A DNA stretch of 64,000 bases from Candidatus Binatia bacterium (GCA_963664395.2 OY761159.2:1984001-2048000); one strand, 5' to 3'. Positions 1-15,025 are shown, counted from the stretch's first letter. The notes: generated by a model from the sequence alone, not told the origin. Numbers and translations are program-made.

Positions 1-1
1 T

Positions 2-346
2 GCCCTGGCGTCCAAAAAGGTCATTGTGTCCGCCGAAGAGATCATCGAAACGGACGAATTTCGGCGCGACCCGGCCCGGACCTCAATCCCTCATTTTACG
101 GTCGATGCGGTCGTGCATGCGCCGTTTGGTGCGTATCCGGGGACCGTCCAAGGACGCTATGCCTCCGATGTCCAGCATGTGGTCGAGTGTTTCGGCGGGA
201 CCATGCGCGGCGACCTGCAACCCTATCTTGAAAAATGGGTGTACGGTGTGGACTCGCACGACGAAATGCTGGAAAAGCGCGTCGGGTGGAAAAAACTCCA
301 GGAGTTACAACGACGCGAAACCATTCGGGAGGGATACTCGATATGA
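2..346 (+). CDS. CoA-transferase subunit A (glutaconate CoA-transferase-like), 5'-truncated by window edge
   Basis: Open frame from base 2 (ALASKKVIVSAEEII...TSIPHFTVDAVVHAPFGAYP), typical of the CoA-transferase alpha C-terminus. ATGA overlap with the next gene. Confidence 0.8.
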   Translation, partial: ALASKKVIVSAEEIIETDEFRRDPARTSIPHFTVDAVVHAPFGAYPGTVQGRYASDVQHVVECFGGTMRGDLQPYLEKWVYGVDSHDEMLEKRVGWKKLQELQRRETIREGYSI

Positions 347-1194
347 CACCGGCCACACATTTTGCGGAACGAGAACATTTGATCTGTACCGTTTCGCGGG
401 TCATTGAAGAAGAAAAAAGCTATTGGGTCGGCGGTGGCGGAGAGCCCTTATACAGCATTTTGCTGGCCCAGCGGCTGTACGCCTCAGGCGTCCAGTACAT
501 GACCGAGGATGGCGTGATTGCCCCGCAGTCCATGATGCCCTGGGACCCGCTGATGACCATGGTGGCTTCCCGGGCCGGCTACCGCGCCCTCCAGTGGGGA
601 ACGATGAATACTGCGGGGAATTTTGCCCAGCTCGGCTATGTCGATGTCGGCATCCTCAACACCCTACAGGTGGACCGCTACGGTAATATCAATTCGACCG
701 TCTTGGGGGAATACGAAGGCGGCCAGGGCCGGCGTTTTGGCGGGCCAGGTGGAGCCGATACTATTGCAGCCCAATGCTGGCGCACAATTCTGATGACCGA
801 CCAACAAAAGCGTAAATTCCCTGAACGGGTGGACTTTATTTCATCACCGGGCTTTCTCGACGGACCGGGGGCTCGCGAGGCAAACGGCCTGCCAGCGGGA
901 ACCGGTCCGTGGCGCGTGTTCACCCCGTGGGCGATGTTTGGCTATGAAGAAAAGTCGTGCGAGCTGATGCTCATGGCTGTTTCACCGTTTGTCACGGTTG
1001 ATATGGTCCTGGCCGAGATGTCCTTTGAGCCGAAAATAGCCCCAACCATTGAAACGCTTGATCCACCCATGGAAGAAGAGTTGGAGATCATCCGCACCCA
1101 GCTTGATACAGATGGACAAACAACGGGTCGCGGACAGTGGATTGAAAAACGGGATGACAAATACGTCTTTGCCGAAACGCAGGGACGCGAGTAA
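343..1194 (+). CDS. CoA-transferase subunit B
   Basis: Motifs QVDRYGNINST, GPGGADTIA and FPERVDFISSPG. ATG at 343 overlaps the upstream stop, with GGAGG upstream. Confidence 0.85.
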   Translation: MTPATHFAEREHLICTVSRVIEEEKSYWVGGGGEPLYSILLAQRLYASGVQYMTEDGVIAPQSMMPWDPLMTMVASRAGYRALQWGTMNTAGNFAQLGYVDVGILNTLQVDRYGNINSTVLGEYEGGQGRRFGGPGGADTIAAQCWRTILMTDQQKRKFPERVDFISSPGFLDGPGAREANGLPAGTGPWRVFTPWAMFGYEEKSCELMLMAVSPFVTVDMVLAEMSFEPKIAPTIETLDPPMEEELEIIRTQLDTDGQTTGRGQWIEKRDDKYVFAETQGRE

Positions 1195-1274
1195 GGGGCT
1201 TCAAAGTCTTTGAGTCTGTATCTTGATGGTGTCCAGGGGTGCTGTAGCCCTTTTCTTTTCCCCTCCCCTTTGCC

Positions 1275-1763
1275 TTACCCCTTGTCTCCTCTCATACTAT
1301 CAATATTCTGGCCTGTTTCTTCAGCCCATTGTTGAGTAATTTTTTCTAACGTTGCTGCCTTTGCATTCGTCAGACTGTGGACAAAGCGTACCACTTTCGT
1401 GTGTCGCCTGATGGGAAGCCTTTTATGCGCTGGCGTTGACTCAAAGGGGAAAAATATCTCACGATACAGTGTAGCTACGATTTTACGGGTTTGTTTCTTG
1501 TCAATATTGCCCCAGCACCAGCGGAAAAATTCTTGGAGTTGCACTACGAGGAGGCCGAAGAAGAAAGCTTCTATCCATTCCCTGGACGACATATTTTGTC
1601 GTCCACCAGGTAGCTCGCTCCTCTTTGCCACCTTCTTCTTGGCTACTACTTTTTTCTTGGCTACCGGCTTCTTTACGGTCGTGGTACGTGTTGTTTTTGG
1701 TGGTGTTACCTTTTTTTTCAGGCGAACTGTTGGTTTCTGCTCCTTTTGCGCCTTCCTCGCCAT
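1275..1763 (-). CDS. Hypothetical protein with Lys-rich (histone H1-like) N-terminus and one hydrophobic segment
   Basis: 162-aa ORF containing KKPVAKKKVVAKKKVAKR; the DNA is visibly AT-richer than the flanks. Confidence 0.5.
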   Translation of the reverse strand: MARKAQKEQKPTVRLKKKVTPPKTTRTTTVKKPVAKKKVVAKKKVAKRSELPGGRQNMSSREWIEAFFFGLLVVQLQEFFRWCWGNIDKKQTRKIVATLYREIFFPFESTPAHKRLPIRRHTKVVRFVHSLTNAKAATLEKITQQWAEETGQNIDSMRGDKG

Positions 1764-2049
1764 CCCCGTATCATACCAAGACTTTCCCTTACGTCCATCA
1801 TTTTCTGGAATGGGCTGCTAATTTTTCTCTGCAATATATGCCTTCGTTGATCTGTTTTGGGCAAAGGTCTTTTTACAACAGTGACTTAAACAATATATAA
1901 CGAGAGGCTTTCTCCGGGAGAAATCCCTTCTCTCCACGATGACGGAGTAATGGAGGCGAGGTTGCCTTAAGTTTTGGGAGGATTTTAAGCTTTTCTGATT
2001 TCCAAACTTGGTGCCCCACCACTTTGTCCTTCATACTAATGTGCGGGGG

Positions 2050-3246
2050 TCAGTCGTCGCCAAACACAAACTCTGGTGGAACTTCCCAGTTTCGACAGAC
2101 CTCAAGTTGCTTGGCGATCTCCGCAACGTTATTGAGCGTACGCGAGGGAACCTCTTTGTTCCCTCGATGCGTCCAATCTTCCGGTCGTCCGATTTCCACG
2201 AAAACCTCCTCGACCGGGAATGGTTTTCCCCCAGTGAACTCTCTGAAATCATCCTGTTTTTCGTCATACAGATACGTAAAATCCATGAGGTATGGCTTTG
2301 AGGCTGTCGGCGCAACTTCTCGATCCAGGAAAAACTCCTCCCGAACGGCGTGGTCCGTGTGAAGCACACCCTCATAGCGGGTCCAGTCCTTATTTTCCAG
2401 GACCGTTGGAACCTGAGATAAGGGACAAGCAACATCGGCGGCCAACGCCTTCCCGTCTGGAGCGACCGGGCGCAGCCATGTCGCTCGTCCTTGCTCTAGT
2501 GGCTCAGTGCTATTTGTCCCACGGGTCGGTGTCGCATTCTGGATCGTGACCATGGCCTGCTTCAATGCCCATTCACGACTATCTGTCTTTTGCTGATACC
2601 AGTCGCGGAAAGCGATCATGTGTCCGGGGCTATTCGCGGTAAACGCGATACCCCCAGGGAATCGATGATCGTGCCACCATCGGCCGTCCCCCGCGCACGC
2701 GAAGTAGTCCAGATTGAACTGGTATCCGTAGAACGCCCCGCTGTTTGGGTCCTTCAGATAGAGGAAATCGCTTGTCACCGGATTGGACTGACGCGCTCCG
2801 CGTGAGCTAGTTCCCCATCTGGCTAGTTCCAGAATGCGGTCGCTCAACGCGCGTAGATGCCGGTCCGGTGCGGCGAAGGCTACCCGTGGCGAGGCCACGA
2901 CAAGCACGAAGCTGTGGGCACTCCAGACAGGATCGAACGCAGCTCTCTGTTTCCACAGTCGTTTCTCTTCGGCGATTTTCTCGGCGATCTCGTCATCGCT
3001 CCAACCCAACCCAGCTCTCTCAGAGAGGAAACAGAAATGGCTGCGACCTTGTTTGGCTGCGATACGCCCAAACTGACAGGGCTGCCTTCGCAGGCACCAT
3101 AAGTTCACGCATTCAGCCATTTCCGCTTCTGTCGCAGCGCTGTTATGAAGGAGCGCATTCGCCTGGAGTAGATCATCACTGAATGGGTGAGAAAGCCGCC
3201 AGGCATCGCCCGACAAGCGCTCGATCAGATCCGCTACGGCAGTCAT
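2050..3246 (-). CDS. Hypothetical protein, last gene of the CHAT/adenylation operon; possible metal- or heme-binding enzyme
   Basis: 398 aa. ATGA overlap with the upstream gene and GGAGG RBS. Motifs QPCQFG, WWHDHRFPGG, GHM and HTDH. Confidence 0.75.
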   Translation of the reverse strand: MTAVADLIERLSGDAWRLSHPFSDDLLQANALLHNSAATEAEMAECVNLWCLRRQPCQFGRIAAKQGRSHFCFLSERAGLGWSDDEIAEKIAEEKRLWKQRAAFDPVWSAHSFVLVVASPRVAFAAPDRHLRALSDRILELARWGTSSRGARQSNPVTSDFLYLKDPNSGAFYGYQFNLDYFACAGDGRWWHDHRFPGGIAFTANSPGHMIAFRDWYQQKTDSREWALKQAMVTIQNATPTRGTNSTEPLEQGRATWLRPVAPDGKALAADVACPLSQVPTVLENKDWTRYEGVLHTDHAVREEFFLDREVAPTASKPYLMDFTYLYDEKQDDFREFTGGKPFPVEEVFVEIGRPEDWTHRGNKEVPSRTLNNVAEIAKQLEVCRNWEVPPEFVFGDD

Positions 3247-5078
3247 CCGTCCTCCTCCCTACCTCCAACAAGTGGGCCTCTAGGGGCGTTCTCACCAGAG
3301 ATGAGCACTGGCACCTCGCGGGACCCGCACGCGACTCTGGCAATATCGAACGCATCGCACATCGTCCGACCGTCTCCCAAGGCCCCGTACAATGCCTGGC
3401 TGAAGGTGATAGCGGTGGAGTCTGAGACCTTGCTCGGCCACCCAACGGCGTATCCTGTGCCCCCTTCGCCTACTAGGTCGCGTGCAAACCTCTCCGACTC
3501 ACACGCATTCAGCACGCACAACACCACGTCCTCTTCTATCGTCTTCAGTACCGTCAGGAACTCCTCCGCACTGAGAGCGGTCTCGTTCGCCAATAGATGA
3601 TGGTCTTCAATGATCGAGAGACTACGCTCGTTTCCGTGTCCGGCAAAGTGCACGATCTTTGGCCGATGACGATACGCGTAGGCAAGCCTTTCTCGGGTAG
3701 CAGCCAGAATGGAATCTCCTAGATAGATTGAGTCTTTATGCTCGCTTGCACGTAAAGCATCTTGGATCGCGTGATACTCATTGGGCATCTGGATCTGATT
3801 CAGTTGGGAGCCGCCTCGATCCCCGGCAATGAATAGGATCTTTACCGAATTCCGGCTATCCGCTTCGCTTGTGGGTTGCTCTTGGCTCGGTGGTAGATCG
3901 CTGACATCCGACAATACATGAAATACCTGATCGATTCCCACCGATGGTACTCGGACATCCCCGCTCAGCACTGGAACCTTGAAATAGCACTCGAAGCCTG
4001 CCGAGCTTTCACCCTTCCTCAGCACCGTATGAAAATTCGGCAGTGCCTCCCGGCGCTCGCTGAAAGCTTTGGCAGCGCCGAGCACACCCGTTGTGTGGAT
4101 GCCGTTCACAAGGACCACCGTGGACTCTTCGTTCAACGGATTGGGAAAACGAGCAAAATACCCAACGTCCTTACATATCCGCCGCTGCCCCGTGACGCCG
4201 CTGCCTGGCCCATCGCGGTACTCCGCGTGGAGTTCTAGCGGCGCGTCCTCGTCCATTATGACCGTCATCTGCTCACAGTCATCGGAATAGGATATCCGTG
4301 AGTGGACTGCCTCCATCATCTCCTTACAAACGCTATTCCCGATGTCGGAAGTAGAGCCGGGGCCGCCGAGCACGACAAGGTTGCCACTCGTATGACCGTC
4401 GGGGAGATTGCCAGAGTGGAAGTGTTGGATCGTGGCGCTGGGATAGTGTCCTGAGAGGAAAACCATAAGCTCAAGCAGTGCATCTTGGTCCCCGAGGTTG
4501 TCCAGGTAGGTATAATCGGGACTTGAGCGATTCGCATACTCACCGGGCTCGTGATTCTGTGGGCATACAACCCAGATGGTGCTTGTTCTCCGAGGAAACC
4601 AGAACCGGAAGATCAGTTCCTCCTGGATCTGCGCCTCAGGAATCGCCCGAAAAATCTCGGTCTCGAATGCGGAATCAGACTGGAAGAGTTCGTTCATTGA
4701 ACGATACAGAATCGGGTCTGAAATTCCCCAATTCAGTCGCTTAGCGATAGGCTCGGATTCCATATCGCCTACAAGAATTCCGGGTACGCGAGCACCTTGC
4801 AACCGTCCAGCGTATAAGGCTAGCTTCTCATCGCTCTCGCTCACGTCAAGAACAGCGACCGCGTACCCAGAGCGCCACTCCCGCTCCTCACCGGCTTCCT
4901 CAGAATTCAGAAATGCGGTCTGAACTTCTATCGTTGGGTGCTTTTCCCTAAGTCGTTGTTCGACACGTTTTACTACCTCCGTCACGCCATAGCGGAATCC
5001 ATCAACGGCGCGCCTATCCCATCCTGCGGCATGCACTGCGACCACAACGAGCTGCAATGCGTCGGTTCCCTCGCTCAC
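3243..5078 (-). CDS. Multidomain CHAT (caspase-like) protease: degenerate NDT/TIR-like domain + NLVVLGGP domain + CHAT
   Basis: C-terminal KILFIAG...PKIVHFAGHG...VLNACES carries an intact His-Cys dyad. Start reassigned to GTG 5078 because of the GTGA overlap with the upstream stop at 5075-5077. Confidence 0.85.
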   Translation of the reverse strand: MSEGTDALQLVVVAVHAAGWDRRAVDGFRYGVTEVVKRVEQRLREKHPTIEVQTAFLNSEEAGEEREWRSGYAVAVLDVSESDEKLALYAGRLQGARVPGILVGDMESEPIAKRLNWGISDPILYRSMNELFQSDSAFETEIFRAIPEAQIQEELIFRFWFPRRTSTIWVVCPQNHEPGEYANRSSPDYTYLDNLGDQDALLELMVFLSGHYPSATIQHFHSGNLPDGHTSGNLVVLGGPGSTSDIGNSVCKEMMEAVHSRISYSDDCEQMTVIMDEDAPLELHAEYRDGPGSGVTGQRRICKDVGYFARFPNPLNEESTVVLVNGIHTTGVLGAAKAFSERREALPNFHTVLRKGESSAGFECYFKVPVLSGDVRVPSVGIDQVFHVLSDVSDLPPSQEQPTSEADSRNSVKILFIAGDRGGSQLNQIQMPNEYHAIQDALRASEHKDSIYLGDSILAATRERLAYAYRHRPKIVHFAGHGNERSLSIIEDHHLLANETALSAEEFLTVLKTIEEDVVLCVLNACESERFARDLVGEGGTGYAVGWPSKVSDSTAITFSQALYGALGDGRTMCDAFDIARVACGSREVPVLISGENAPRGPLVGGREEDG

Positions 5079-5683
5079 ACGTCCCTCAGCTTGATCAGTC
5101 CATAACAGTCGGCAATCGGTCGCCGCTTTCCATCCCGCAGGACCACCCCTTCTGGTACGTCGCATGTTACGCGCTCTCCCGCAGCGACGTAAGCGCGCGG
5201 TCCTATCGTTATCCCACCGATAAGGACCGCACCGACTCCCACAACGCTACCGCGCTTGATGATCGGAGATGACTCCACAGTGTCGTCCCAGTCGCCGGTT
5301 GTATCGGCGTACGAGTGCGCTGTTTCGCCCTGAAATCTCACCCAGTCTTCGACAATTGTCCGGTCAACCAACTCGCCTGCAATGATACAGTTCTCGCCGA
5401 TCGAGACCTCGTCAAAGATCTGCGCGCGATAAAGCACGCGGGTTCCCGTTCCGATCCGGGAACCGTACGATATTCGGCAGTAATGATCGACCTCTACACG
5501 GTCCGCCAGATGCACTCCGCCTTCGATTAGACAGAAAGCGCCAATGCAGACACCACCCCCAATGGAAACGGGCTCTTCTTCAGTTGCCTCATAACCAACG
5601 TAGCTACAGAAGCCGACCGACGCATTTCCGTTGAAACGGGTCGTGGGGTGGACATGAGCCGACGTGTCGATTTGGATGTTCAT
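5075..5683 (-). CDS. Left-handed beta-helix (hexapeptide repeat) acyl/acetyltransferase
   Basis: Hexapeptide repeats IGGGVCIGAFCLI, IGTGTRV and IGENCII. The C-terminal IKRGSVVGVGAVLIGGITIG..AYVAAG..VT.DVP resembles sugar N-acetyltransferases. Confidence 0.85.
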   Translation of the reverse strand: MNIQIDTSAHVHPTTRFNGNASVGFCSYVGYEATEEEPVSIGGGVCIGAFCLIEGGVHLADRVEVDHYCRISYGSRIGTGTRVLYRAQIFDEVSIGENCIIAGELVDRTIVEDWVRFQGETAHSYADTTGDWDDTVESSPIIKRGSVVGVGAVLIGGITIGPRAYVAAGERVTCDVPEGVVLRDGKRRPIADCYGLIKLRDV

Positions 5684-6495
5684 TCGCGGTCAGCCTCCTC
5701 GATGAATCGGGAGATAATATTCCACACCTCGCGGTGCTTCTCCTTGGTCGCAGGCGACGACAAGTCTTCATCGTCGCCCACTCCGAATCCGTGGTCGGTG
5801 CCGGGAATATTGATGAGCGTACAATGCTCATACATCCGTGCAAAACGTTCAGATGAAGAGTACGACACGATCGAATCTTTATCGCCGTGGAGAATGAGGG
5901 CATTGCACTTAAGCTGCGGTAATCCTTCGGCCCCGGAAATGAAGCGGAGTTCGTTCAGCAGGGCTGCGCCATACTGAATCTCGTCCGTCTCCACATACCC
6001 TTGCCGTTGGAGCCCTTGGGCTATTTCCTCACGCAACTTGCCATCCACGATTGCCCCGTGCTGCCCCAATACATCCTCCTCATAATCAATCACTGGCGCT
6101 AGCATGACCACCGACCTGACGGGAACTAACGTTTTTGCAGCCCAATAGGCCGACAGTCCGCCGCCAAAGCTCATACCAATCACATGAACAGATGATGCGT
6201 GCGCATGTGCCAGTGCCGCAGCCGCTGCGGCCTCGATGTCGTTGACGATCCCGGCCAGCGTCATTGTCTTCATAGGCATTTTGCTCGCACCGTGACATCG
6301 ATAGTCGAACCTGAATGACGGCACCCCTTTTTTCGCCAAGTGCTCTGAGAGCCCGGAGAACAGACCGAACTCGTCTCGCGATGACGTAATCCCATGTATG
6401 AGGATCGCGAGACCGTTGCTTCCTATAGTGCCAGTCGTATAAGTGCCTTCCAAGGACGTGCCGTCAAAGCTTCGAAACCGCAGCGTTGTCTCCAC
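5680..6495 (-). CDS. Alpha/beta hydrolase (thioesterase/esterase-like)
   Basis: HG oxyanion motif, RFDYRCHGAS, nucleophile GMSFG, HGDKD and DHGF give a Ser-Asp-His triad. GTG start overlaps the upstream TAG. Confidence 0.88.
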   Translation of the reverse strand: METTLRFRSFDGTSLEGTYTTGTIGSNGLAILIHGITSSRDEFGLFSGLSEHLAKKGVPSFRFDYRCHGASKMPMKTMTLAGIVNDIEAAAAAALAHAHASSVHVIGMSFGGGLSAYWAAKTLVPVRSVVMLAPVIDYEEDVLGQHGAIVDGKLREEIAQGLQRQGYVETDEIQYGAALLNELRFISGAEGLPQLKCNALILHGDKDSIVSYSSSERFARMYEHCTLINIPGTDHGFGVGDDEDLSSPATKEKHREVWNIISRFIEEADRE

Positions 6496-7646
6496 TATTT
6501 CCTCCCTTTAAGCGTCATCGCCGCCATGGCATGCTGTACTGTCTCGTGAGCAGGCAACGACGAATAAGACGTATGCTTAGCGATTGCGTCCACACACCAA
6601 TCCTGCAGAATCGTCCTTTCTCTCACGCACAAGTCTCCAGAGCGCAGTACCGCCTCTACCGCACTCAAGCCATAGTCGTTCAAGCACGACCGCACTGGCC
6701 CATCTGCTGTTGATTGATGGGCCAGTTCCATCACCTCAGCGATACGTGTGGTCGGTAGCACCTCGGGACTGGGCGTATATTGAGCAAGAGCACCTAGTGT
6801 CGCCAGAGGAGTCCGTTTTTCTCCATCGCGATGTACACACAGGCAATCAAACACCAGGTCACCGGCGAGTTCAAACAGGATATCGCTAAGAGTCGCTCGC
6901 CGCGGTTCTGGCGGAGCATGCTGCACGACCTGTTCGCTACGTACGACTCGGACCTTCCCGCTGATACTGTGTAGCAAACACCACAGCCAATCCTCGTTAT
7001 ACCCAGGCGGAAAGGCGAACAATTGTGTCGGATGGAGGCTGAACGCCATATATCCAGCGCTCACCCATCCGCCGTCGATATCCCCCATGTCATCACTACT
7101 AGCCGTGCAATTGATCTGCCGCGACTCCAGCCCTCGAATCGACTCGTGCAGCCGAGTGAGTGTGTCCATTTCTGATTGGCCATCGATCTCAGCGCCAACG
7201 ATTAAGCCCTGGGACCCAGGCGCCAGTTGCTCAAGACGCTCGTGCGTCAGTTCAAGGTCAAAACCGCAAATATCGTCATCTATGAGAATGGTCGTGCGTG
7301 CTCTTACCGCAGCCGAGAGCAGGAGAGCGAGGTTCCTCAGTGGAGCAATATCGCGCCGCGCTGTCCTGAATTGCCACTCCAATGCTGATCCACCCGTCAC
7401 CCCTGCGATTGTCTCGTACAATTGAGTAGGCATGAGGTGTGTGACCATTGCAGGCGACTTGCGCGCTACAGTAGTCAGTAGATAGGCATTCTCCGCCGCA
7501 ACCCTGGCCGTGGAATCGTCGAGAACCGTCAGGACATCGCATCGCCTCAGTTTCATGACCGCCGTGTAAACGCTGCGTTCGAGCACCTCGGTCCGGTCTT
7601 GCGTGAGGATGATTGCGTGCACACGAATCGAATCGAATTTGTCCAT
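6495..7646 (-). CDS. GT-A fold (glycosyltransferase family 2-like) protein
   Basis: IILTQDR..LERSV, VLDDS, RNLALL, DxD-like IDDDI and PPGYNEDWLW motifs. Confidence 0.7.
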   Translation of the reverse strand: MDKFDSIRVHAIILTQDRTEVLERSVYTAVMKLRRCDVLTVLDDSTARVAAENAYLLTTVARKSPAMVTHLMPTQLYETIAGVTGGSALEWQFRTARRDIAPLRNLALLLSAAVRARTTILIDDDICGFDLELTHERLEQLAPGSQGLIVGAEIDGQSEMDTLTRLHESIRGLESRQINCTASSDDMGDIDGGWVSAGYMAFSLHPTQLFAFPPGYNEDWLWCLLHSISGKVRVVRSEQVVQHAPPEPRRATLSDILFELAGDLVFDCLCVHRDGEKRTPLATLGALAQYTPSPEVLPTTRIAEVMELAHQSTADGPVRSCLNDYGLSAVEAVLRSGDLCVRERTILQDWCVDAIAKHTSYSSLPAHETVQHAMAAMTLKGRK

Positions 7647-7900
7647 TACTCTCCGTTCGTTCGAGACTGACGATCAAAGAATTCGCAAATGGCCTTCATG
7701 GTCCTCAGCTCCCACGCTTCGTCATCATCAATACTGACTTCCAGTACCTCTTCGATAGCTTCAATAATCTCCACGTGACCCAAACTGTCCCATCCGTGAT
7801 GCCGAAGCATCTTAGATTCTCTGGAGAGAGATTCCTTGGGGCATTTAAGAGCCTCCGCAACGACATCAAACGGATCTGGTGGGGTAGCACCCAATGTCAT
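7646..7900 (-). CDS. Acyl/peptidyl carrier protein
   Basis: 84 aa, acidic, with the GWDSLGHVEII phosphopantetheinylation motif. Confidence 0.9.
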   Translation of the reverse strand: MTLGATPPDPFDVVAEALKCPKESLSRESKMLRHHGWDSLGHVEIIEAIEEVLEVSIDDDEAWELRTMKAICEFFDRQSRTNGE

Positions 7901-9399
7901 GATTCTATCTCCCGGAGAAGCGCTTCACGATCAATTTTCCCGCTCTGATTCCGTGGCAGGCTCGGCAATGCACGGATTACCCGTGGAATGGCGTGGAACG
8001 GGAGGAAAGGTCGTAAGGAGTTCTGGATCTGCTCCTGATTGAGTGGCTCAATCGATTCAACGAAGGCGTACAACTCGTCGTCCTTGCAGATAGTATAGGC
8101 ATCGTGAAAACCTATCTGGCGAAGCCGGCTTTCAATCTCTCCTGGTTCGATGCGCTCACCGTTGGTCTTTATCTGCCGGTCGATGCGTCCCGAACAATAG
8201 AGACGACCGCCCCGACGCACTCCCCAATCCCCGGTGAAGTAACATCGCCGGATGCGCGAGTCGGCGAATTCAACCTGGCGAAAGGCCGCTCGGGTTTGCT
8301 CCTCGTCGTGCCAATAACCGGTGCTAAGGAAGTCACCGGCTACGACGATTTCCCCTTCCTCGTCGTCATGCTCACCACGCAGATGAGTGCTCCAACCGGG
8401 GACGTCTTCTCCGATGGCGGCCGACTCCAGCTCACACGAGTCCATGAAATTTTTGGCCGTCAAGCGGTTGAGTGTGTTGAAACCAATGGTTTCAGTAGTG
8501 CCATAGGTATTAAAGACAGTGAGGTCTGGACAGACGTTGAACAACGCCTGAAGTTGTTCACGACGCAGGGGTTCTCCACAGAAACTCATCACACGGAGAG
8601 AGGCCAGATACTCGCCCGTCGGTTGCTTGCCACGTAGCATGAAATTAAGCGCACTTGGAACTGATTGCCATACCGAAATGCGTCTATCCCTGATTACTCT
8701 CGCTGGCCTCAACCGCTCTGCTTCACTCAGTGGAACCAAAGTGCCGCGCTGCGTGAGCGCCATGAAGACGTCCATGACGCCGAGATCATGCGCGAGACGT
8801 GACCATTGGCCCCACTTTTCACCTGGAGACAAATTGAAGTAGCTCTGGCATACGCCAAGGAAGTGCGAGAAACCGCGCCGACTAATCTTTACGCCCTTCG
8901 GACGGCCCGTCGAGCCTGAGGTAAAAACGACGTATGCCACATCGCTCCGGTCGATAGCAGGGCTCACCGATCGCATCGACAGCGGTTTCATTAGGTCGGC
9001 ACTCGGAGTTGTATCTGGCAAAGCAGAAAGAAAGCTTGGTCGCGTGTTCTCATAGAGCACGACCTGGGGCGCAAAATCCTTGCAGATTGCCGCGTTTCGC
9101 TCCTCAGGTCCTGTTTCCGTTATCTCGACGGGACAGAATGTGCCTCCCGCGATGAGGGACCCGAGCATTGCCGCATACGCCCGTTGTGAAGACGGCAGGG
9201 CAATCAGTACCCGAGGGCACGGGTTTTCCGTGAGCTGTTGGATGGTTGCCGCCAATTGAGACGCGAGCGACGCGATCTCCTCGTAAGAGTGCGTCCCGTC
9301 AACTGTCTCCACAGCAGGGACTCTGGGACAGTCCTGGACGCATCTGAAGAATGCGTCTAGCAGGTCCACTGGTTCTTGACCGGAGCCTATAATCGCCAC
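7897..9399 (-). CDS. Stand-alone amino-acid adenylation enzyme (DltA/NRPS A-domain-like)
   Basis: Core motifs YVVFTSGSTGRPKGV, FCGEPL, NTYGTTE, YFTGD, GRIDRQIK and LPRNQSGKIDR. Confidence 0.92.
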   Translation of the reverse strand: MAIIGSGQEPVDLLDAFFRCVQDCPRVPAVETVDGTHSYEEIASLASQLAATIQQLTENPCPRVLIALPSSQRAYAAMLGSLIAGGTFCPVEITETGPEERNAAICKDFAPQVVLYENTRPSFLSALPDTTPSADLMKPLSMRSVSPAIDRSDVAYVVFTSGSTGRPKGVKISRRGFSHFLGVCQSYFNLSPGEKWGQWSRLAHDLGVMDVFMALTQRGTLVPLSEAERLRPARVIRDRRISVWQSVPSALNFMLRGKQPTGEYLASLRVMSFCGEPLRREQLQALFNVCPDLTVFNTYGTTETIGFNTLNRLTAKNFMDSCELESAAIGEDVPGWSTHLRGEHDDEEGEIVVAGDFLSTGYWHDEEQTRAAFRQVEFADSRIRRCYFTGDWGVRRGGRLYCSGRIDRQIKTNGERIEPGEIESRLRQIGFHDAYTICKDDELYAFVESIEPLNQEQIQNSLRPFLPFHAIPRVIRALPSLPRNQSGKIDREALLREIES

Positions 9400-9412
9400 G
9401 TTTCCCCCAACC

Positions 9413-10639
9413 TCACGTCATGCTGCCCAACTGCCGTCGGACCTCGCCTGTGCCGACAAACTGCGACAACAGCCGATAGTTCTGGTGCTCATAGCGAACC
9501 TTGCCGGCGATGATCGCCGGATGGACTTGCAGCGCATGGGCCAGATTCATGACCGCCATGGGTGTCGGGCGTTCCCGAGCCGCGCTCGCTTCCCAATCCG
9601 CCTGAGGGACGAGTGCCTCGATTGCCCATTCGTCGGCCTGCGCTTCTCTGGGGTCTTCCCGTCTGCCTTCCACCCCGCGCAGTGTCTGGTCATCGACAAA
9701 GGCATTGCCCTGGTTGTTGTCCAGGTGGCGACCCACGTGTGCCAATTCGTGCAACAGGCAGAACCAGAAATTGTCGATCCGGTCGTAGCGCAAGGTCAAC
9801 CCGACCACCGGCCGACCGTCCTTGAGCCGGAGCGCAGCGCCGTCGAGATAGGTCCTCGGCAAATGCGGCACGATCACTAGCGAGATGCCGTGTTTTGCCA
9901 GCACCTCCCTGGCCAGTCGCGGGCCGTCTTCAAACCAGCTCAACTGCGCAACCTCCCTGAGGAAGTGCGGCGTTACGGTGCCAGATACGTACTCCGTCTG
10001 CGGTGGGTTCTTGTTCCCCGTTGCCAGCACCTGCCAGCACCACGCTTTGAGGGCGTAGGCGTCCACCTTGGCGTTCGCACGCATATGATCGTTCTTTCGG
10101 TAGAGGGCAGCACAGGCGACATCCGGCCCTCCCGCCCGGTCAATCAACCCGCGCATAATCGCCTCGGCGCGCTTCGCCAAGTTGCGACCATCTCGAATCC
10201 AGCCCAGCTTCGCCATGTTCTTGACAGGAAATCGACTCCAATTGAGATCAGCCAGTGGATCGCTCATGTCTACATCCGGCTCGCGCAGTAACACATCGGC
10301 TGGGATGCCAAGATGCTGATGAAGCGCCCGCGCCATCGACATGGTGATGGCACGCTTGCCGGAGAGCACCTCGGACACCTTCGCTCGGCTCCCGATGAAA
10401 GGGATCAGGTCACGCGGCCGCAAATTGCCCTGCTCCATGCGGAACTCGATTGCAGCGAGCGGACTTGGATAGCCCATCGGCTCGTGCTTGCTCTCATAGA
10501 GTTCAACCAGATCAACGAGAATGTCGAGCTCATCGAACTCCGGGCTGCCGGGCGCTGCATCCATTAACGCGTCGATCCGCGCCAGCGCGTCCTCATAATC
10601 CTGCTCGGTCCGGACCGGCTTGATCTTTCCAGTGGCCAT
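9413..10639 (-). CDS. higA: HigA-type HTH antitoxin fused to ImmA/IrrE metallopeptidase domain
   Basis: N-terminal IKPVRTEQDYEDALARID...SEVLSGKRAIT (HigA); C-terminal RYDRIDNFWFCLLHELAH (HExxH). Start placed at MATGK, 10639. Confidence 0.88.
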   Translation of the reverse strand: MATGKIKPVRTEQDYEDALARIDALMDAAPGSPEFDELDILVDLVELYESKHEPMGYPSPLAAIEFRMEQGNLRPRDLIPFIGSRAKVSEVLSGKRAITMSMARALHQHLGIPADVLLREPDVDMSDPLADLNWSRFPVKNMAKLGWIRDGRNLAKRAEAIMRGLIDRAGGPDVACAALYRKNDHMRANAKVDAYALKAWCWQVLATGNKNPPQTEYVSGTVTPHFLREVAQLSWFEDGPRLAREVLAKHGISLVIVPHLPRTYLDGAALRLKDGRPVVGLTLRYDRIDNFWFCLLHELAHVGRHLDNNQGNAFVDDQTLRGVEGRREDPREAQADEWAIEALVPQADWEASAARERPTPMAVMNLAHALQVHPAIIAGKVRYEHQNYRLLSQFVGTGEVRRQLGSMT

Positions 10640-10640
10640 C

Positions 10641-10934
10641 TTACACCTCCAGAACATTCACGCGGTCATATTCGGCATGTGTTCCCACGAAGCGGACATA
10701 GACAATGCGTCCCGGATAGTTGATTTTCGCCACGAGCCGATAATGGTTACCCTTAATGTTAAAGACTACCCGGCTGTCACCGAGAATGCGGGCATTCGGG
10801 TATTTCTCCTTTATCTGTACCGGCGTCTCCCACTCCTCCTTCACGACCTCCCTATACCAGGCAAGCAGCGGCTCCTCGGCGTCCGCATGCCGCTCCCAAC
10901 ACTCCCGCAGCCTCTTCTTGCTGATGATCCGCAT
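10641..10934 (-). CDS. higB: HigB toxin (RelE superfamily mRNA interferase)
   Basis: MRIISKKRLRE..W...RVVFNIKGNHYRLV..INY..IVYVRFVGTHAEYD is the canonical HigB pattern. Confidence 0.93.
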   Translation of the reverse strand: MRIISKKRLRECWERHADAEEPLLAWYREVVKEEWETPVQIKEKYPNARILGDSRVVFNIKGNHYRLVAKINYPGRIVYVRFVGTHAEYDRVNVLEV

Positions 10935-10939
10935 AGCGA

Positions 10940-10968
10940 ATTATAAATTGTTCCCAAAATAATGTCAA
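10940..10968 (-). promoter_or_regulatory. Consensus sigma70 promoter, leaderless, for the higBA-led operon
   Basis: The minus strand reads TTGACA-N17-TATAAT-tcgct-ATG(higB), with no room for a Shine-Dalgarno sequence. Confidence 0.85.
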
Positions 10969-11018
10969 GTATAACGATCCCTAAATAGAAAGAGTATATA
11001 GCCCTTGGTGACTTCGGG

Positions 11019-12272
11019 TCAAGAGACGACCGCAACCACATATTTTCTGGTACTCCGTCGGCAGCCCCTGAGACGTGGCCCGGGGCTCACCGGAAGGTGT
11101 ACCAAAATTAATGTCCTAATCGAGTTTATACGAAAGTGCGGTGATGGAAGGTCTGGGGGTGACGGTAGTTGGCACGAAAACCCCCGCGAAGCGGCTGGGT
11201 TCTTCCCTATCCGGGCGAAGCAGCAGGAGTCTCCACCCGTTCGGGAGCCAGGGGCCGGTAGACCACACGCTTCGGCGATGAGTTCATAGGAGCGCACACG
11301 CTTGGAAAAATCATAACAAATCGTCACAATGCCGAGGTCGGTGGTCTGAAACACCTCGGCCAAGTGTTCGAGTTGCTCTTTCACCTGCTGCGGGTCTCCG
11401 TCAACATTGGCGCGACGGTATTGTTCCAGATAGGCCAGTTCGTCAGCGCTATACGGGTAGGCGCGTGCTTCCTCAGGCGTGGGGACCCCCCGCCGACGGC
11501 CACGGATGATGTTCAGCCGCACCATATTTCTGCTTGCCGACAGATAGTGCGCCTCTTCTGCGGTCTCCGCACATAGAGCCTGAACCGTCACATTGACCTT
11601 GGGCTCAGCTAAAAACTCTGAGGGACGAAAGTGCTGTCGGTAGCTCTCAACAATAGCCGGACCATGCTGGACGCCCATACCGAAGAAATAGGCATAGCTG
11701 AACGGCAGACCCCGCTCAGCCGCAATAAGGGCCGAGTCAATGCCCGAACCAAGCAACCAAACGTCCGGTGTGGTGCCCGCTGTTGGTCCGGCATGCACAT
11801 CGGCAAAACGGTGCTCTGGAGGGAGATCATCTGCGAGGTAGGCGATCAGGTCGTTGACCTGTTCCGGGTAATACCGAATATCGCGGGGTTGGCCGGGGTA
11901 GGAGAGCGCACCCGCGGTTCGTTGATCGCTCCCGGGCGCGCGGCCAAGGCCGAGGTCTATGCGGCCGGGATAAAAAGATTCAAGGACGCGGAATATCTCG
12001 GCAACTTTGAGGGCGCTGTAGTGGGACAGCATCACGCCGCCGCTACCGACTCGAATATGTTGTGTACGGGCTGCAATCTGGCCGATCACTATTTCCGGGC
12101 TGGTACCGGCGAAACTGGGCAAATTGTGATGCTCTGCAACCCAGAAACGTTCATATCCGAATTTTTCCACCGCCTCGGCAAGGGCGACCGTCTCCCGCAA
12201 CGCTTGGGCGGCTGTTCCCCCTTGTCGGACAGGAGACTGATCCGCCACACTCAAGTGCAGTTGTTGTGCCAT
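11019..12272 (-). CDS. LLM-class flavin-dependent oxidoreductase (luciferase-like) with atypical 3' extension
   Basis: RFWVAEHHN, RVGSGGVML and GRIDLGLGRAPG. Family-like sequence appears to end near YELIAEACGL (~11260). Confidence 0.88.
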   Translation of the reverse strand: MAQQLHLSVADQSPVRQGGTAAQALRETVALAEAVEKFGYERFWVAEHHNLPSFAGTSPEIVIGQIAARTQHIRVGSGGVMLSHYSALKVAEIFRVLESFYPGRIDLGLGRAPGSDQRTAGALSYPGQPRDIRYYPEQVNDLIAYLADDLPPEHRFADVHAGPTAGTTPDVWLLGSGIDSALIAAERGLPFSYAYFFGMGVQHGPAIVESYRQHFRPSEFLAEPKVNVTVQALCAETAEEAHYLSASRNMVRLNIIRGRRRGVPTPEEARAYPYSADELAYLEQYRRANVDGDPQQVKEQLEHLAEVFQTTDLGIVTICYDFSKRVRSYELIAEACGLPAPGSRTGGDSCCFARIGKNPAASRGFSCQLPSPPDLPSPHFRINSIRTLILVHLPVSPGPRLRGCRRSTRKYVVAVVS

Positions 12273-12277
12273 AGCTT

Positions 12278-12307
12278 AAAAAAAGGGCAGCCCCATGGGA
12301 CTGCCCC
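12278..12307 (-). terminator. Rho-independent terminator
   Basis: Minus strand GGGCAGTCCCATGGGGCTGCCC followed by T7, downstream of the esterase gene. Confidence 0.6.
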
Positions 12308-12332
12308 TGCTGTCGTGTCTCCGAAGAAAATT

Positions 12333-13217
12333 TTATGCCGTACGTTCCTTAAAAAACGCACCAATCTCTTCAATAGCCTGCCGGCCTTCGGGAAGAATCG
12401 GCGCAAACAAATGCCACACATGCGGCATTTCGTCCCAGATTTTCAGCGTCACATCCACGTCTGCTTTGCGGGCTCGTTCTGTGATTCTTGTGGCGTCGTC
12501 CAACAAGGTCTCTGAATCACCGACCTGGATAAGCAATGGCGGCAGGCCCGCAAGATTGGCATGCAGCGGGGCCGCCAGCGGGTTTTTCGGGTCCGCACCG
12601 CCCAAATACAGCTTGGCCATACCGAGCAGGCCTTCCTTCTGGACAACAGGATCGACCGCCGCCCGCGTGGTCATCGACTCTCCCGTTCCTTCCATATCGA
12701 CCCAGGGCGAAATACCAATGCCCGCGGCCGGCACAGGCTCCCCGGCGTCACGGATAGCGATGAGTGCGGCAAGAGCGAGGCCGCCACCAGCCGAGTCTCC
12801 TGCAATAGCAATGTTTGAGGCCTGAATACCTTGTCCGAGCAACCAACGGTAAGCTGCCACGGAATCATCCACCGGAGCGGGGAAGGGATGCTCGGGGGCC
12901 AGACGATAGTTGAGGGAGAGCACGCGGGCGCCAGATGCCTGGGATAGGCGGCCAGTCATGTCGCGGTGGGACCCGGCGGAGCCCATCACATAGCCGCCAC
13001 CATGGACATACAAGATGACCTTATCCTGGTCAGCGCCATCGGCAACACTCCATTCGGCAGACACCCCACCAGCTTCAACCGGGGTACACGTCACGCCAGC
13101 CGGGGCGGGTGCTTCTATCATGATCGCGCGCATGGCGTTGATATCTTTTGCCTCGGCCATCTTCGCCCCCATCTCTTTGAACATATCGAGGGTCTGTTGT
13201 AGTTGCGGACTTGCCAT
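12333..13217 (-). CDS. HSL-family esterase (alpha/beta hydrolase fold 3)
   Basis: HGGGY, YRLAPEHPFPA, GDSAG and HVW motifs; AGGAGG RBS before ATG 13217. Confidence 0.92.
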   Translation of the reverse strand: MASPQLQQTLDMFKEMGAKMAEAKDINAMRAIMIEAPAPAGVTCTPVEAGGVSAEWSVADGADQDKVILYVHGGGYVMGSAGSHRDMTGRLSQASGARVLSLNYRLAPEHPFPAPVDDSVAAYRWLLGQGIQASNIAIAGDSAGGGLALAALIAIRDAGEPVPAAGIGISPWVDMEGTGESMTTRAAVDPVVQKEGLLGMAKLYLGGADPKNPLAAPLHANLAGLPPLLIQVGDSETLLDDATRITERARKADVDVTLKIWDEMPHVWHLFAPILPEGRQAIEEIGAFFKERTA

Positions 13218-13334
13218 AGAGAACCTCCTTTTTTTACAGATCAATCGTCTCGCCGTACTCGAAGCGTATAACCGGTATAACCCCGGCCGGGTGTTGTCAA
13301 CTCAAACGAGTAATCGGCAACGGGCCAGGACGCC

Positions 13335-13604
13335 CTAGGCGACCCAGCCGTGCTGAAAGGTGTGTATCGTGCCGGGCGGATACCACCACTGGCCGGTTTG
13401 ACATAAGGGACATGTCTTTGGCGTGGACCCGCGTTTATATTCCGGGACACCGGCCATGGCCTGCACCGCGCCTTCAAAGGTCCCATCCCGGGTGACCTTC
13501 TTGGTGAGCAAATAGAGTCCCACGCCACAATCGGGGCAGGACAGGATCGTCCCCGAATTCAAAAACGGGAACGGAGTAATCTGATCCGGGAAGGGCTGCG
13601 ACAT
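13335..13604 (-). CDS. Small zinc-ribbon protein
   Basis: CPDC...CPLC; GGAGG RBS before ATG 13604. Confidence 0.65.
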   Translation of the reverse strand: MSQPFPDQITPFPFLNSGTILSCPDCGVGLYLLTKKVTRDGTFEGAVQAMAGVPEYKRGSTPKTCPLCQTGQWWYPPGTIHTFQHGWVA

Positions 13605-13620
13605 GGTCCCCTCCAAATAC

Positions 13621-14895: not shown

Positions 14896-15025
14896 GTATT
14901 CCTCCCCAGGGCTGCCCGCAGCTTATCCAGCCGGCTCCTTGACTGTCAACTGGATTCGCTTCCGCCCCGGTCTAGCCCGCCTGGGGTATTGTTGTTAGGT
15001 AGGGTGCACGGAGGTAGAGGCTACG

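Follow-up and report, generated by a model that had tools for sequence, protein, structure and literature searches.

A mobile seven-gene cassette joining carrier-protein chemistry to a caspase-like CHAT protein in Candidatus Binatia looks like an undescribed kind of bacterial conflict system

The window analysed here is a 64,000-nt stretch of the genome of Candidatus Binatia bacterium (GCA_963664395.2, OY761159.2:1984001–2048000), in which open reading frame (ORF) calling revealed nine consecutive minus-strand ORFs at 2050–10934. The first two encode a 97-aa HigB-like toxin of the PD-lambda-2 component A type (10641–10934) and a 414-aa fusion of a HigA-like HTH domain to an M78/ImmA-IrrE peptidase, of the PD-lambda-2 B type (9413–10657, with an alternative start at 10639). 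The other seven form a cassette whose order is a stand-alone adenylation enzyme of the DltA/nonribosomal peptide synthetase (NRPS) A-domain type (500 aa, 7897–9399), a carrier protein with its phosphopantetheine serine in a WDSL motif (84 aa, 7646–7900), a glycosyltransferase A (GT-A)-like protein (383 aa, 6495–7646), an alpha/beta-hydrolase (271 aa, 5680–6495), a left-handed beta-helix (LbH) acyltransferase (202 aa, 5075–5683), a CHAT protein (611 aa, 3243–5078) and a 398-aa protein of an unnamed family (2050–3246). All nine lie on an island of ~9.3 kb (1904–11208), placed by alignment to an empty-site allele between a luciferase-like oxidoreductase gene and a gene for a 162-aa protein.

An initial annotation of the window had described the seven cassette genes as joined by start/stop overlaps at every junction, and all six overlaps are indeed present on the minus strand (ATGA 7897–7900, TAATG 7646, TAGTG 6495, ATGA 5680–5683, GTGA 5075–5078 and ATGA 3243–3246). 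The 13-bp gap that it gave between the pair and the cassette is likewise correct, running from the TGA stop of the HTH-M78 gene at 9413–9415 to the GTG start of the A-domain gene at 9399, and a sequence scan found no terminator-like site between these two genes. The CHAT gene starts at the GTG at 5078 (611 aa) and not at the ATG at 5165, which would make it longer; the shorter form agrees with database forms. Five bp upstream of the higB ATG, at 10968–10940 on the minus strand, is a candidate sigma-70-type promoter, TTGACA-17-TATAAT, which matches the consensus at 12/12 positions and whose first base, 10968, is the end coordinate chosen in the initial annotation. Overall, the promoter scan returned five promoter-like sites, against 4.8 expected from shuffled sequence, and the perfect match occurs only at this position. 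Metatranscriptome contigs from one study (X20 and X21) cover fragments of most island genes at 90–99% likeness and bridge some of the junctions; these contigs come from RNA libraries and belong to relatives, and we take them as proof neither of transcription nor of an operon transcript.

Pfam bore out the earlier domain assignments for seven of the nine proteins, including AMP-binding in the adenylation enzyme (9e-53), PP-binding in the carrier (1.3e-8), Abhydrolase_1 in the hydrolase (3.6e-17), Hexapep in the LbH protein (1.1e-11) and CHAT in the CHAT protein (1e-7); the 383-aa protein, which had been called a GT, and the 398-aa protein have neither a Pfam nor an NCBIfam match. No membrane-type hydrophobic segment was found in the nine proteins (19-residue Kyte-Doolittle scan, maximum 1.73). 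The absence of a condensation domain and of an exporter, which had also been claimed, is correct for the nine proteins by Pfam, NCBIfam and hydropathy, and no membrane protein is encoded among them.

The seven-gene cassette is a conserved, horizontally mobile unit. We surveyed 45 loci, seven from a scan of one genome per species and 38 from a metagenome scan, and the seven genomic loci come from Binatia, Bryobacterales, Planctomycetota, two Pirellulaceae, Acidobacteriota and Acidobacteriaceae. Twenty-six of the 45 are of the window type (type-1). Among the eight loci with room for all seven genes, seven carry all of them in the order seen in the window, and the cassette recurs across Binatia, Acidobacteriota and Planctomycetota; the eighth (L009) is a remnant, its CHAT gene truncated and its last gene frameshifted. 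Such recurrence of one gene order in other phyla, for all seven genes, puts the arrangement far beyond chance. The initial annotation had tied the CHAT gene to the biosynthetic genes, and the two do keep company in other genomes, the LbH gene lying directly upstream of the CHAT gene in 19 of the 20 loci with room for it, while the gene for the 398-aa protein lies directly downstream of the CHAT gene in 14/14 window-type loci. Relatives of the CHAT protein number at least 120 full-length sequences of ~610 aa, down to 41% identity, all unnamed.

The surroundings of the cassette are not conserved with it: when the flanking ORFs of the window and the six non-sister genomic loci were compared by all-against-all BLAST, only one shared flank gene emerged, between the two Pirellulaceae loci. 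Five proteins of the Binatia window are 72–83% identical to those of the Bryobacterales locus, which is high for two phyla and suggests recent transfer. The distribution of the cassette is patchy. The family of the 398-aa protein was found in 0/400 other sampled genomes of the window's phylum and in 1/400 others of the phylum to which the genome of locus L010 belongs. In the acidobacteriotal contig that holds the remnant (G454:C6, L009 and L065) we noted two copies of the 398-aa gene, both split; copy 1 adjoins the N-terminally truncated CHAT gene, the five enzyme genes being absent, and copy 2 adjoins a serine/threonine kinase gene.

Mobility can be seen directly within the genus. The CHAT protein occurs in one of the 27 other genomes of the genus, while two genes of the island's flanks, for the luciferase-like oxidoreductase and for a 319-aa protein, are present in 26/28 and 25/28 genus genomes, respectively. 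In 18 of the 23 other genus genomes with both genes, less than 1.2 kb lies between them; in the window and the sister species the listed coordinates put them 9.8–9.9 kb apart. Contig C3 of the same assembly carries an empty-site allele that aligns at 99% to window positions 1–1903 and 11209–14000, and the junction 1903->11209 also occurs in contigs of two public runs (X1 and X3) from two studies. Natural populations are thus polymorphic for the presence of the ~9.3-kb island, at whose ends no direct or inverted repeat of more than 9 bases was found. The contig with the empty site (G000:C3:1-7000, L012) carries a second copy of both flank genes, at 99–100% identity, on 22.7 kb without the island, which fits strain heterogeneity in this metagenome-assembled genome (contamination 5.37%). 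The luciferase-like oxidoreductase ORF itself (11019–12272, minus strand) encodes 417 aa here, and most other genus genomes match it only to residues ~340–376; as its last ~60 codons lie inside the island (edge at ~11208), the insertion replaced the 3' end of this gene.

We consider the CHAT protein next. Its C-terminal domain (residues ~410–611, 3246–3851, minus strand) is identified as a caspase-like protease by Pfam, by profile comparison and by structure search. The profile matches SAVED-CHAT (PDB 8tl0) at 4.5e-16 over residues 431–591 only, with the motifs HFaGHG and LCVLNAC aligned; in the AlphaFold model (predicted local distance difference test score, pLDDT, 76.5) the best Foldseek match is again 8tl0, at 6e-13; and His481 and Cys526 are invariant in 14/14 CHAT proteins. 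The initial annotation had tied this domain to ligand-activated effectors, and that tie is strengthened by the nearest solved relative, SAVED-CHAT, being activated by cyclic triadenylate (cA3). It had also taken the rest of the protein for a sensor. This part is no orphan sensor: residues 10–390 are homologous over their whole length to stand-alone nucleoside-deoxyribosyltransferase (NDT)-like proteins, and because of this homology the 390-residue region may sense a ligand but may just as well be an enzyme or derive from an effector.

These stand-alone proteins define a second, CHAT-less group of cassettes. Nineteen metagenome loci match only residues 25–386 or 155–385 of the CHAT protein, at 27–35% identity, and the match in each is a stand-alone ORF of 384–396 aa directly after an LbH gene; by hhalign (A1 against A5) the relation extends over residues 10–390 with probability 100% and E 6e-63. 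The CHAT-less cassettes carry homologues of the hydrolase, A-domain, carrier and GT-like genes in two other gene orders, either GT, hydrolase, LbH, X, A-domain and carrier, where X is the two-domain protein, or A-domain, carrier, hydrolase, LbH, X and GT. In the locus tables the LbH gene is directly upstream of X in all 17 CHAT-less loci with at least ~260 bp of upstream sequence. The CHAT-less family comprises at least 161 clusters, whose source names point to Bacteroidota and Caulobacteraceae. From the homologies to these proteins on one side and to 8tl0 on the other, the CHAT protein of the window is therefore a fusion of a degenerate NDT-like domain, a middle domain and a CHAT domain.

The N-terminal domain of the fusion (residues 1–150, 4629–5078) is related to the NDT/TIR-like flavodoxin-fold domain of the CHAT-less proteins. 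The Pfam family PF05014 (Nuc_deoxyrib_tr) matches three CHAT-less proteins of type-3, at 9e-7 (29.5 bits, cut-off 28.8), 1.5e-4 and 6.8e-3, and is precomputed on 10 of the 120 CHAT-less relatives among the matches listed; Pfam gave no PF05014 match for the CHAT protein of the window. The same domain in type-3 proteins weakly matches CAP12/Pycsar TIR (7e-3 and 2.5e-2), and its profile match to DNPH1/Rcl is non-significant (E 0.21–0.72), with the family motif fElG aligned to YELG. The glutamate of this ExG/YELG column, which we take to be the nucleophile of the NDT/DNPH1 family, stands two residues before the invariant Gly91 and is present in 14/14 CHAT-less forms versus 0/103 CHAT-fused forms. 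A Ser-His on strand 1 behaves similarly, being present in 13 of the 14 CHAT-less proteins (the fourteenth is gapped there) and replaced by V/L-A/V in CHAT-fused forms. A search for longer fused forms of the NDT-like protein (694–2000 aa) found none, and this search was a weak one.

The alpha/beta middle domain (residues ~155–390, 3909–4616) is conserved, and it has no Pfam match and no PDB sequence match. Its motifs WFP, LGDxDALL, NLVVxGGPG and NGIHTxG (GIxTxG) are invariant across all three cassette types. In L050, a type-3 locus, a separate CHAT gene with aligned His and Cys motifs (E 4e-6) lies beside the cassette, and in L043 (3–1757) a middle-domain relative (48% identity over residues 230–391) runs on within a single ORF into an AdoHcyase_NAD/2-Hacid_dh-type NAD-binding domain instead of CHAT and is followed by a cupin gene. 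A SIR2-like reading of the middle domain, prompted by its GGPG, NPxN and IHT spacing, was dropped because no sirtuin was among the fold-search matches; in addition, the histidine is tyrosine or phenylalanine in type-3 proteins.

The adenylation enzyme matches the AA-adenyl-dom model at 1.3e-81 and DltA models at 7e-66, in both cases below the cut-offs (for the DltA equivalogs, 207.9 bits against 559.85 for TIGR01734 and 222.7 against 476 for NF003417), and its best solved relatives are NRPS A-domains and DltA. The Asp of its HDLGV motif and the Lys of SGKIDR are kept in 18/18 homologues, CHAT-less cassettes included, and the pocket residues neighbouring these anchors are also conserved. An Asp in this A4-type motif binds the alpha-amino group of the substrate in A-domains, and the substrate is probably the same alpha-amino acid throughout. 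The carrier keeps Ser39 in 15/15 homologues and the hydrolase keeps Ser109, Asp207 and His235 in 30/30. In L048 the hydrolase homologue is fused to an N-terminal PP-binding domain, so the hydrolase most likely acts on the carrier thioester. Matches of the LbH protein to NeuD/PglB/VioB, LpxD and LpxA models (1e-9 to 6e-15) all stay under the respective cut-offs. Since these families acylate nucleotide-sugars, some of them with acyl-carrier donors, transfer of the aminoacyl group to a nucleotide-sugar acceptor is suggested.

The 383-aa protein is a putative GT-A enzyme. It has no Pfam, NCBIfam or PDB sequence match, and its profile finds only chance-level matches in the PDB (E at least 0.78). 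The assignment is based on the motifs LDDS, DDD and NEDW, which occur in GT-A order and are invariant in 7/7 homologues, on language-model look-alikes (Atlas) that include GT2 clusters, and on a sub-threshold match of a distant cassette homologue to Glycos_transf_2 (1.9e-4, 21.8 bits, cut-off 23.3), another homologue matching at 0.25. We noted that the invariant stretch FPPGYNEDWLW (residues ~210–222) resembles PPGSNDDWYW of the PRORP nuclease at E 0.78, probably by coincidence. The six shared genes keep their catalytic residues everywhere, and we infer that they form a cytoplasmic pathway to a small molecule, with a carrier-bound amino acid as its starting point.

The seventh gene was left unnamed in the initial annotation. 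Its product, the 398-aa protein, has no Pfam, NCBIfam or PADLOC match. Its family comprises 422 representative clusters at E<=1e-3 and 114 at 1e-30, with Cys57, His194, Asp298 and Trp/His-rich motifs invariant. A confident model (pLDDT 91; predicted template-modelling score, pTM, 0.92) returned as its only significant Foldseek matches five entries of AglA (9ub3 and variants; E 2.6e-4 to 2.1e-3, probability 0.99–1.00). According to PMC12866846, AglA is the N-hydroxylase of a natural-product pathway and the prototype of the YqcI/YcgG haem enzymes, which hydroxylate guanidine nitrogens, with Cys44 as the haem ligand. The protein may thus have a thiolate-haem, YqcI/YcgG N-hydroxylase-like fold; as sequence methods do not confirm the link to AglA, we treat it as a lead only. 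In two unrelated loci (L017, 10513–11830, and L064, 11283–13120), a gene of the AdoMet (S-adenosylmethionine) decarboxylase family is found near one for a 398-aa-family protein, together with a deoxyhypusine-synthase-like gene in one locus and with DUF3326 in the other, which may hint at a polyamine or guanidine substrate. On an E. coli IncF plasmid (CP043748.1; L066, 6942–8868), a gene for a 355-aa hypothetical protein with 23% identity to the 398-aa protein runs into the beginning of a gene for a DMT-family transporter.

The pair in front of the cassette proved to have a name. HigB matches Pfam HigB_toxin (3e-31) and PADLOC PD-Lambda-2_A (6.9e-40, over 1–96 of 97 residues), and the HTH-M78 protein matches PD-Lambda-2_B (4.7e-141, over 11–410 of 414), with weaker matches to capP (1.7e-6), to Pfam Peptidase_M78 (1.6e-4, just under the Pfam cut-off) and to HigA TIGR02607 (3.4e-3). 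The higBA pair, which the initial annotation did not recognise as such, therefore corresponds to two components of PD-lambda-2, a named system that has three; no match to the third, PD-Lambda-2_C, was found by PADLOC among the nine island proteins. According to Vassallo et al. 2022 (PMC9519451), the first gene of PD-lambda-2 is HigB-like, the second encodes an Xre-HTH/peptidase protein that is toxic alone, and the third, P4-antitoxin-like, is needed for defence. In runs X1 and X3, contigs cover the M78-encoding part of the HTH-M78 gene (window 9516–9849) at a much greater depth, with many loose contig ends near 9762–9798; many other organisms in these samples evidently carry related M78 domains in other contexts.

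The notion of a higBA gate as a fixed part of the system does not stand, because only one of the seven other genomic cassette loci, that of the sister species, has the pair. The pair behaves as a persistent platform with changing cargo, and pair and cassette each occur without the other. At the same site in genome G027 the pair is intact (higB 100% and HTH-M78 93% identical in aa sequence) and is followed by a 131-aa chimeric ORF (L068, 2342–2737) that fuses the first A-domain residues to residues 269–363 of the 398-aa protein; this is a clean deletion scar of the whole cassette. G021 also has the pair at this site (93% and 92%), here ahead of a P-loop gene that is broken into two ORFs, of 397 and 354 aa (L067, 2489–4670); its plasmid homologues, annotated as NACHT or ATP-binding proteins, are ~1800 aa long, so the G021 copy looks truncated. 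A pair of 41% identity on a Paraburkholderia plasmid stands ahead of two other genes, one small and hypothetical and the other a DUF6527 gene.

Pair and cassette may then be mere neighbours, uncoupled, with the pair an independent toxin-antitoxin or PD-lambda-2-like marker of a hotspot. The six genomic cassettes that lack the pair, its survival in G027 after the cassette was deleted, and its position before unrelated genes in G021 and on the Paraburkholderia plasmid all speak for this explanation. The layout in this genus speaks against it: the HTH-M78 stop and the A-domain start lie only 13 bp apart with no terminator-like site between them, the one strong promoter match is upstream of higB, pair and cassette were gained or lost jointly as a 9.3-kb block (G000, G012 and the empty-site allele), and PD-lambda-2 needs a downstream third gene for defence. 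We consider it fairly unlikely, if a serious candidate, that the two are uncoupled, and the pair probably sets the expression of the cassette in this genus.

The neighbourhoods of the cassettes offer a further indication of function. Leaving aside the window and the sister species, we scanned the flanks of 15 loci with Pfam, and six of them have defence- or mobility-type neighbours: Mrr-nSTAND3, a PLD nuclease and RepA in L008; an IS1595 transposase and an integrase in L010; a ResIII helicase in L011; NACHT-TPR in L024; a type I R subunit, an SF1 helicase, two TIR proteins, TGT, QueC and TPR-S in L048; and two AAA_16 ATPases with the CHAT gene in L050. Housekeeping-type neighbours elsewhere include deoxyhypusine-synthase-like, AdoMet decarboxylase, SDR, PFOR, TPR and cupin genes. 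L048 also holds, at 13303–16027 and 12567–13034, a TIR-TGT fusion, an Ogg-HhH glycosylase and a QueC gene, which together resemble a 7-deazaguanine DNA-modification set, along with a small ThsB-like TIR protein and a MAP3K_TRAF_bd/TPR-S protein.

Taken together, the cassette looks like an undescribed kind of bacterial conflict system. The reading that we favour, tentatively and at slightly less than an even chance, is that the seven genes are a new conflict module whose small-molecule product controls the protease; such a module would probably be anti-phage or anti-plasmid. We favour it because patterned variation is confined to the protein after the LbH enzyme, which has a caspase-like protease where its nucleosidase-type domain is dead and lacks one where that domain is intact. 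Both kinds of domain, nucleosidases and CHAT-type peptidases, serve as outputs in known signal-based defence systems, of which the exchange of outputs on a constant binding domain is a hallmark.

A mechanism with three layers may be envisaged, in which we infer the chemical steps, the control of the CHAT protease by a ligand and the role in defence from the homologies above. The first layer would be the six-gene core, which is common to many CHAT-less relatives. Here the stand-alone A-domain would load an alpha-amino acid onto the small carrier protein, an LbH enzyme of the LpxA/LpxD/PglD kind would pass the aminoacyl group to a sugar- or nucleotide-type acceptor, and the GT-A-like enzyme and the hydrolase (a thioesterase, or a transacylase acting on the carrier) would complete or release a small cytoplasmic product. 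The second layer would be the two-domain alpha/beta protein that always comes after LbH. In its CHAT-less form it would have an intact NDT/DNPH1-type N-glycosidase domain; in the window type that domain would be dead, the catalytic-type Glu having been lost, and the CHAT protease is fused at the C-terminus. Output domains would thus be exchanged on a constant, ligand-binding middle domain, and binding of the product there would switch on the protease, which would cleave cellular or phage targets. The exchange of effectors makes such control of CHAT by the product more plausible, short of proving it. The third layer would be the haem-thiolate-type, oxygenase-like protein, which arrived together with CHAT; the 398-aa protein might either tailor the product or be the target of the protease.

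In its most specific form, which we regard as doubtful, the conflict-module reading becomes a thiotemplate-built immune second messenger: an aminoacylated sugar or nucleotide signal would be read by the two-domain receptor, behind a switch of the PD-lambda-2-type HigB/HTH-M78 kind in this genus. The output of the receptor would then be a nucleoside N-glycosidase in the CHAT-less cassettes of Bacteroidota and Proteobacteria versus a CHAT protease with a haem oxygenase partner in the window type. Known classes of defence signal are cyclic oligonucleotides, cyclic ADP-ribose (cADPR) isomers, cyclic pyrimidines and His-ADPR, and such a messenger would be a fifth chemical class of defence signalling.

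Several observations weigh against the conflict-module reading. Nine of the 15 scanned loci have uninformative or housekeeping neighbours, and the figure of six in 15 was compared with no background. Relatives of the CHAT protein were not found in viral contigs, a search of plasmids gave no match to the type-3 NDT-like protein, and on plasmids the 398-aa protein has only the one distant relative of 23% identity, the E. coli one beside the DMT transporter gene. Another distant relative of the 398-aa protein lies beside DUF3326 and AdoMet decarboxylase genes, near a restriction/Septu-like island. Six of the seven cassette proteins match no PADLOC model, and the HigB/HTH-M78 pair stands at only one of the seven other genomic cassette loci. 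The middle domain may be an enzyme and not a sensor, given its fusion to a NAD-binding domain in L043, and NDT-family enzymes are also biosynthetic, base-releasing hydrolases in nucleoside antibiotic pathways. Finally, the fold match of the 398-aa protein to AglA is modest (template-modelling score, TM, 0.28 on the query and 0.41 on the target); comparison of its family with PDB sequences, by sequence and by profile, gave nothing even at E up to 10; and PF08892 was found in none of the 41 genomes searched, that of the window included, and in one of 28 members of the 398-aa family, at 0.015.

The main rival is a compact biosynthetic cluster that would make an aminoacylated nucleoside- or sugar-type metabolite as an antibiotic or chemical anti-phage agent. 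The two-domain protein would then be a pathway enzyme, which in the CHAT-less types would act as an N-glycosidase and release a base or sugar, the haem enzyme would be a tailoring N-oxygenase, and CHAT would be an accessory for maturation, self-resistance or turnover. Nucleoside antibiotic pathways do combine an NDT-type CMP hydrolase, a glycosyltransferase and aminoacyl carriers. In keeping with this, every other gene encodes an enzyme with intact catalytic residues, the NDT-like domain matches PF05014, and in L043 the middle domain is joined to a NAD-binding domain. The 398-aa protein, moreover, would share the fold of AglA, a natural-product N-hydroxylase (PMC12866846), and its distant relatives are found beside DMT transporter and AdoMet decarboxylase genes (also in L017). 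However, no exporter, resistance gene or regulator is conserved with the cassette, and the neighbourhoods lean to defence and mobile genes in six of the 15 scanned loci. The NDT-like Glu is lost in 103/103 CHAT-fused members, so that the supposed pathway enzyme is dead exactly where CHAT is present, and we know of no precedent for a caspase-like protease fused to a pathway enzyme. We therefore rate a biosynthetic cluster as unlikely, although a substantial contender.

Two further explanations fare much worse. The cassette might be a protein-tagging system that places a carrier-bound amino acid or glycosyl group on a target protein, with the clan-CD CHAT enzyme as transpeptidase: CHAT has kept its catalytic dyad, the genes for LbH and the CHAT protein are always neighbours, and clan-CD enzymes include transamidases. 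Nevertheless, no target or tag gene is conserved, the CHAT-less cassettes are devoid of any peptidase, and the closest solved relative is a destructive, ligand-activated protease, all of which makes tagging very improbable. Least credible of all is an envelope-modification locus of the dlt or AlmEFG kind, transferring an amino acid to teichoic acid, lipid A or a polysaccharide: the gene set (a stand-alone A-domain, a carrier, an LpxA/LpxD-type LbH enzyme and a GT-A-like protein), the DltA matches at 7e-66 and weak matches of the hydrolase and the ligase to exosortase-A-associated models recall such loci, but every score falls far short of its family cut-off, the cassette occurs in a patchy, island-like manner, and a dlt-like function is unlikely for proteins that all look soluble and have no membrane partners, there being no membrane-spanning segment in the nine proteins and no DltB/DltD, MBOAT, flippase or exporter in the island or conserved beside it.

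If the conflict-module reading is right, the cassette would be the first defence system with NRPS-type aminoacyl-carrier chemistry, and it would link natural-product enzymology to phage immunity; should it instead make a bioactive aminoacyl-nucleoside-like metabolite, the cassette would be an unexplored biosynthetic cluster, compact and widely spread. Nature has in either case supplied an experimental design, since three architectures built on the same six enzymes differ in output (a nucleosidase-type domain that is intact, a CHAT protease, or CHAT as a separate gene), and one lineage shows the cassette, a deletion remnant and an empty site at a single locus. The putative thiolate-haem N-oxygenase fold is a first structural lead for an unannotated family of at least 422 sequence clusters, and the carriage of different cargo at one site by PD-lambda-2-type HigB/HTH-M78 pairs bears on how PD-lambda-2 works.

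As to novelty, the initial annotation recognised no described system. For the cassette this agrees with the PADLOC result, in which six of its proteins match no model and the CHAT protein matches only the CHAT part of SAVED_CHAT; the pair is of the PD-lambda-2 A/B type. We found no description of the gene set in the literature, in a search that mostly left subscription journals outside and with the proviso that supplementary tables of surveys may list it; the database names of relatives are only 'hypothetical protein', 'CHAT domain' and 'nucleoside 2-deoxyribosyltransferase'.

As in PD-lambda-2, A is followed by B and then by a downstream gene; here the position of the third component is occupied by the seven-gene cassette, which in six of the seven other genomic loci occurs without A and B. 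Like DltA/DltC and AlmE/AlmF, the cassette has a stand-alone A-domain and a small carrier, and DltA structures and models are among the best matches; it differs in having no DltB/DltD or AlmG-type membrane acyltransferase and in being coupled to CHAT or NDT-like proteins. From NRPS it differs in that no condensation domain is present in the nine island proteins. With the NDT/DNPH1 family (PF05014) it shares the first domain of the CHAT-less proteins, in which ExG is aligned with DNPH1 YELG, whereas the window protein lacks both the PF05014 match and the Glu; a second conserved domain, of unknown family, follows. A possible likeness to the YqcI/YcgG enzymes (AglA, DcsA) lies in the fold and in the invariant Cys57 near the N-terminus of the 398-aa protein, AglA having Cys44 as its haem ligand, and the difference in the lack of a sequence-level match and in a length greater by 150 residues.

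The closest parallel for the effector is the SAVED-CHAT protein of type III CRISPR-Cas (PDB 8tl0), which likewise combines a large N-terminal alpha/beta region with a CHAT domain containing the catalytic His and Cys. In SAVED-CHAT the N-terminal region binds a nucleotide signal. The 390 N-terminal residues in the window are not SAVED, the PADLOC SAVED_CHAT match covering only profile positions 333–451; there is no CRISPR-Cas or oligonucleotide-signal synthase gene in the island and none conserved beside the cassette; and the partners of the CHAT protein are thiotemplate, acyltransferase and GT enzymes and not a cyclase. The cassette similarly differs from CBASS, Thoeris, Pycsar and type III CRISPR in having no cyclase, TIR synthase or CD-NTase. 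What it would share with all four is their logic, in which a small molecule made by an enzyme is received by a constant binding domain and acted upon by alternative outputs.

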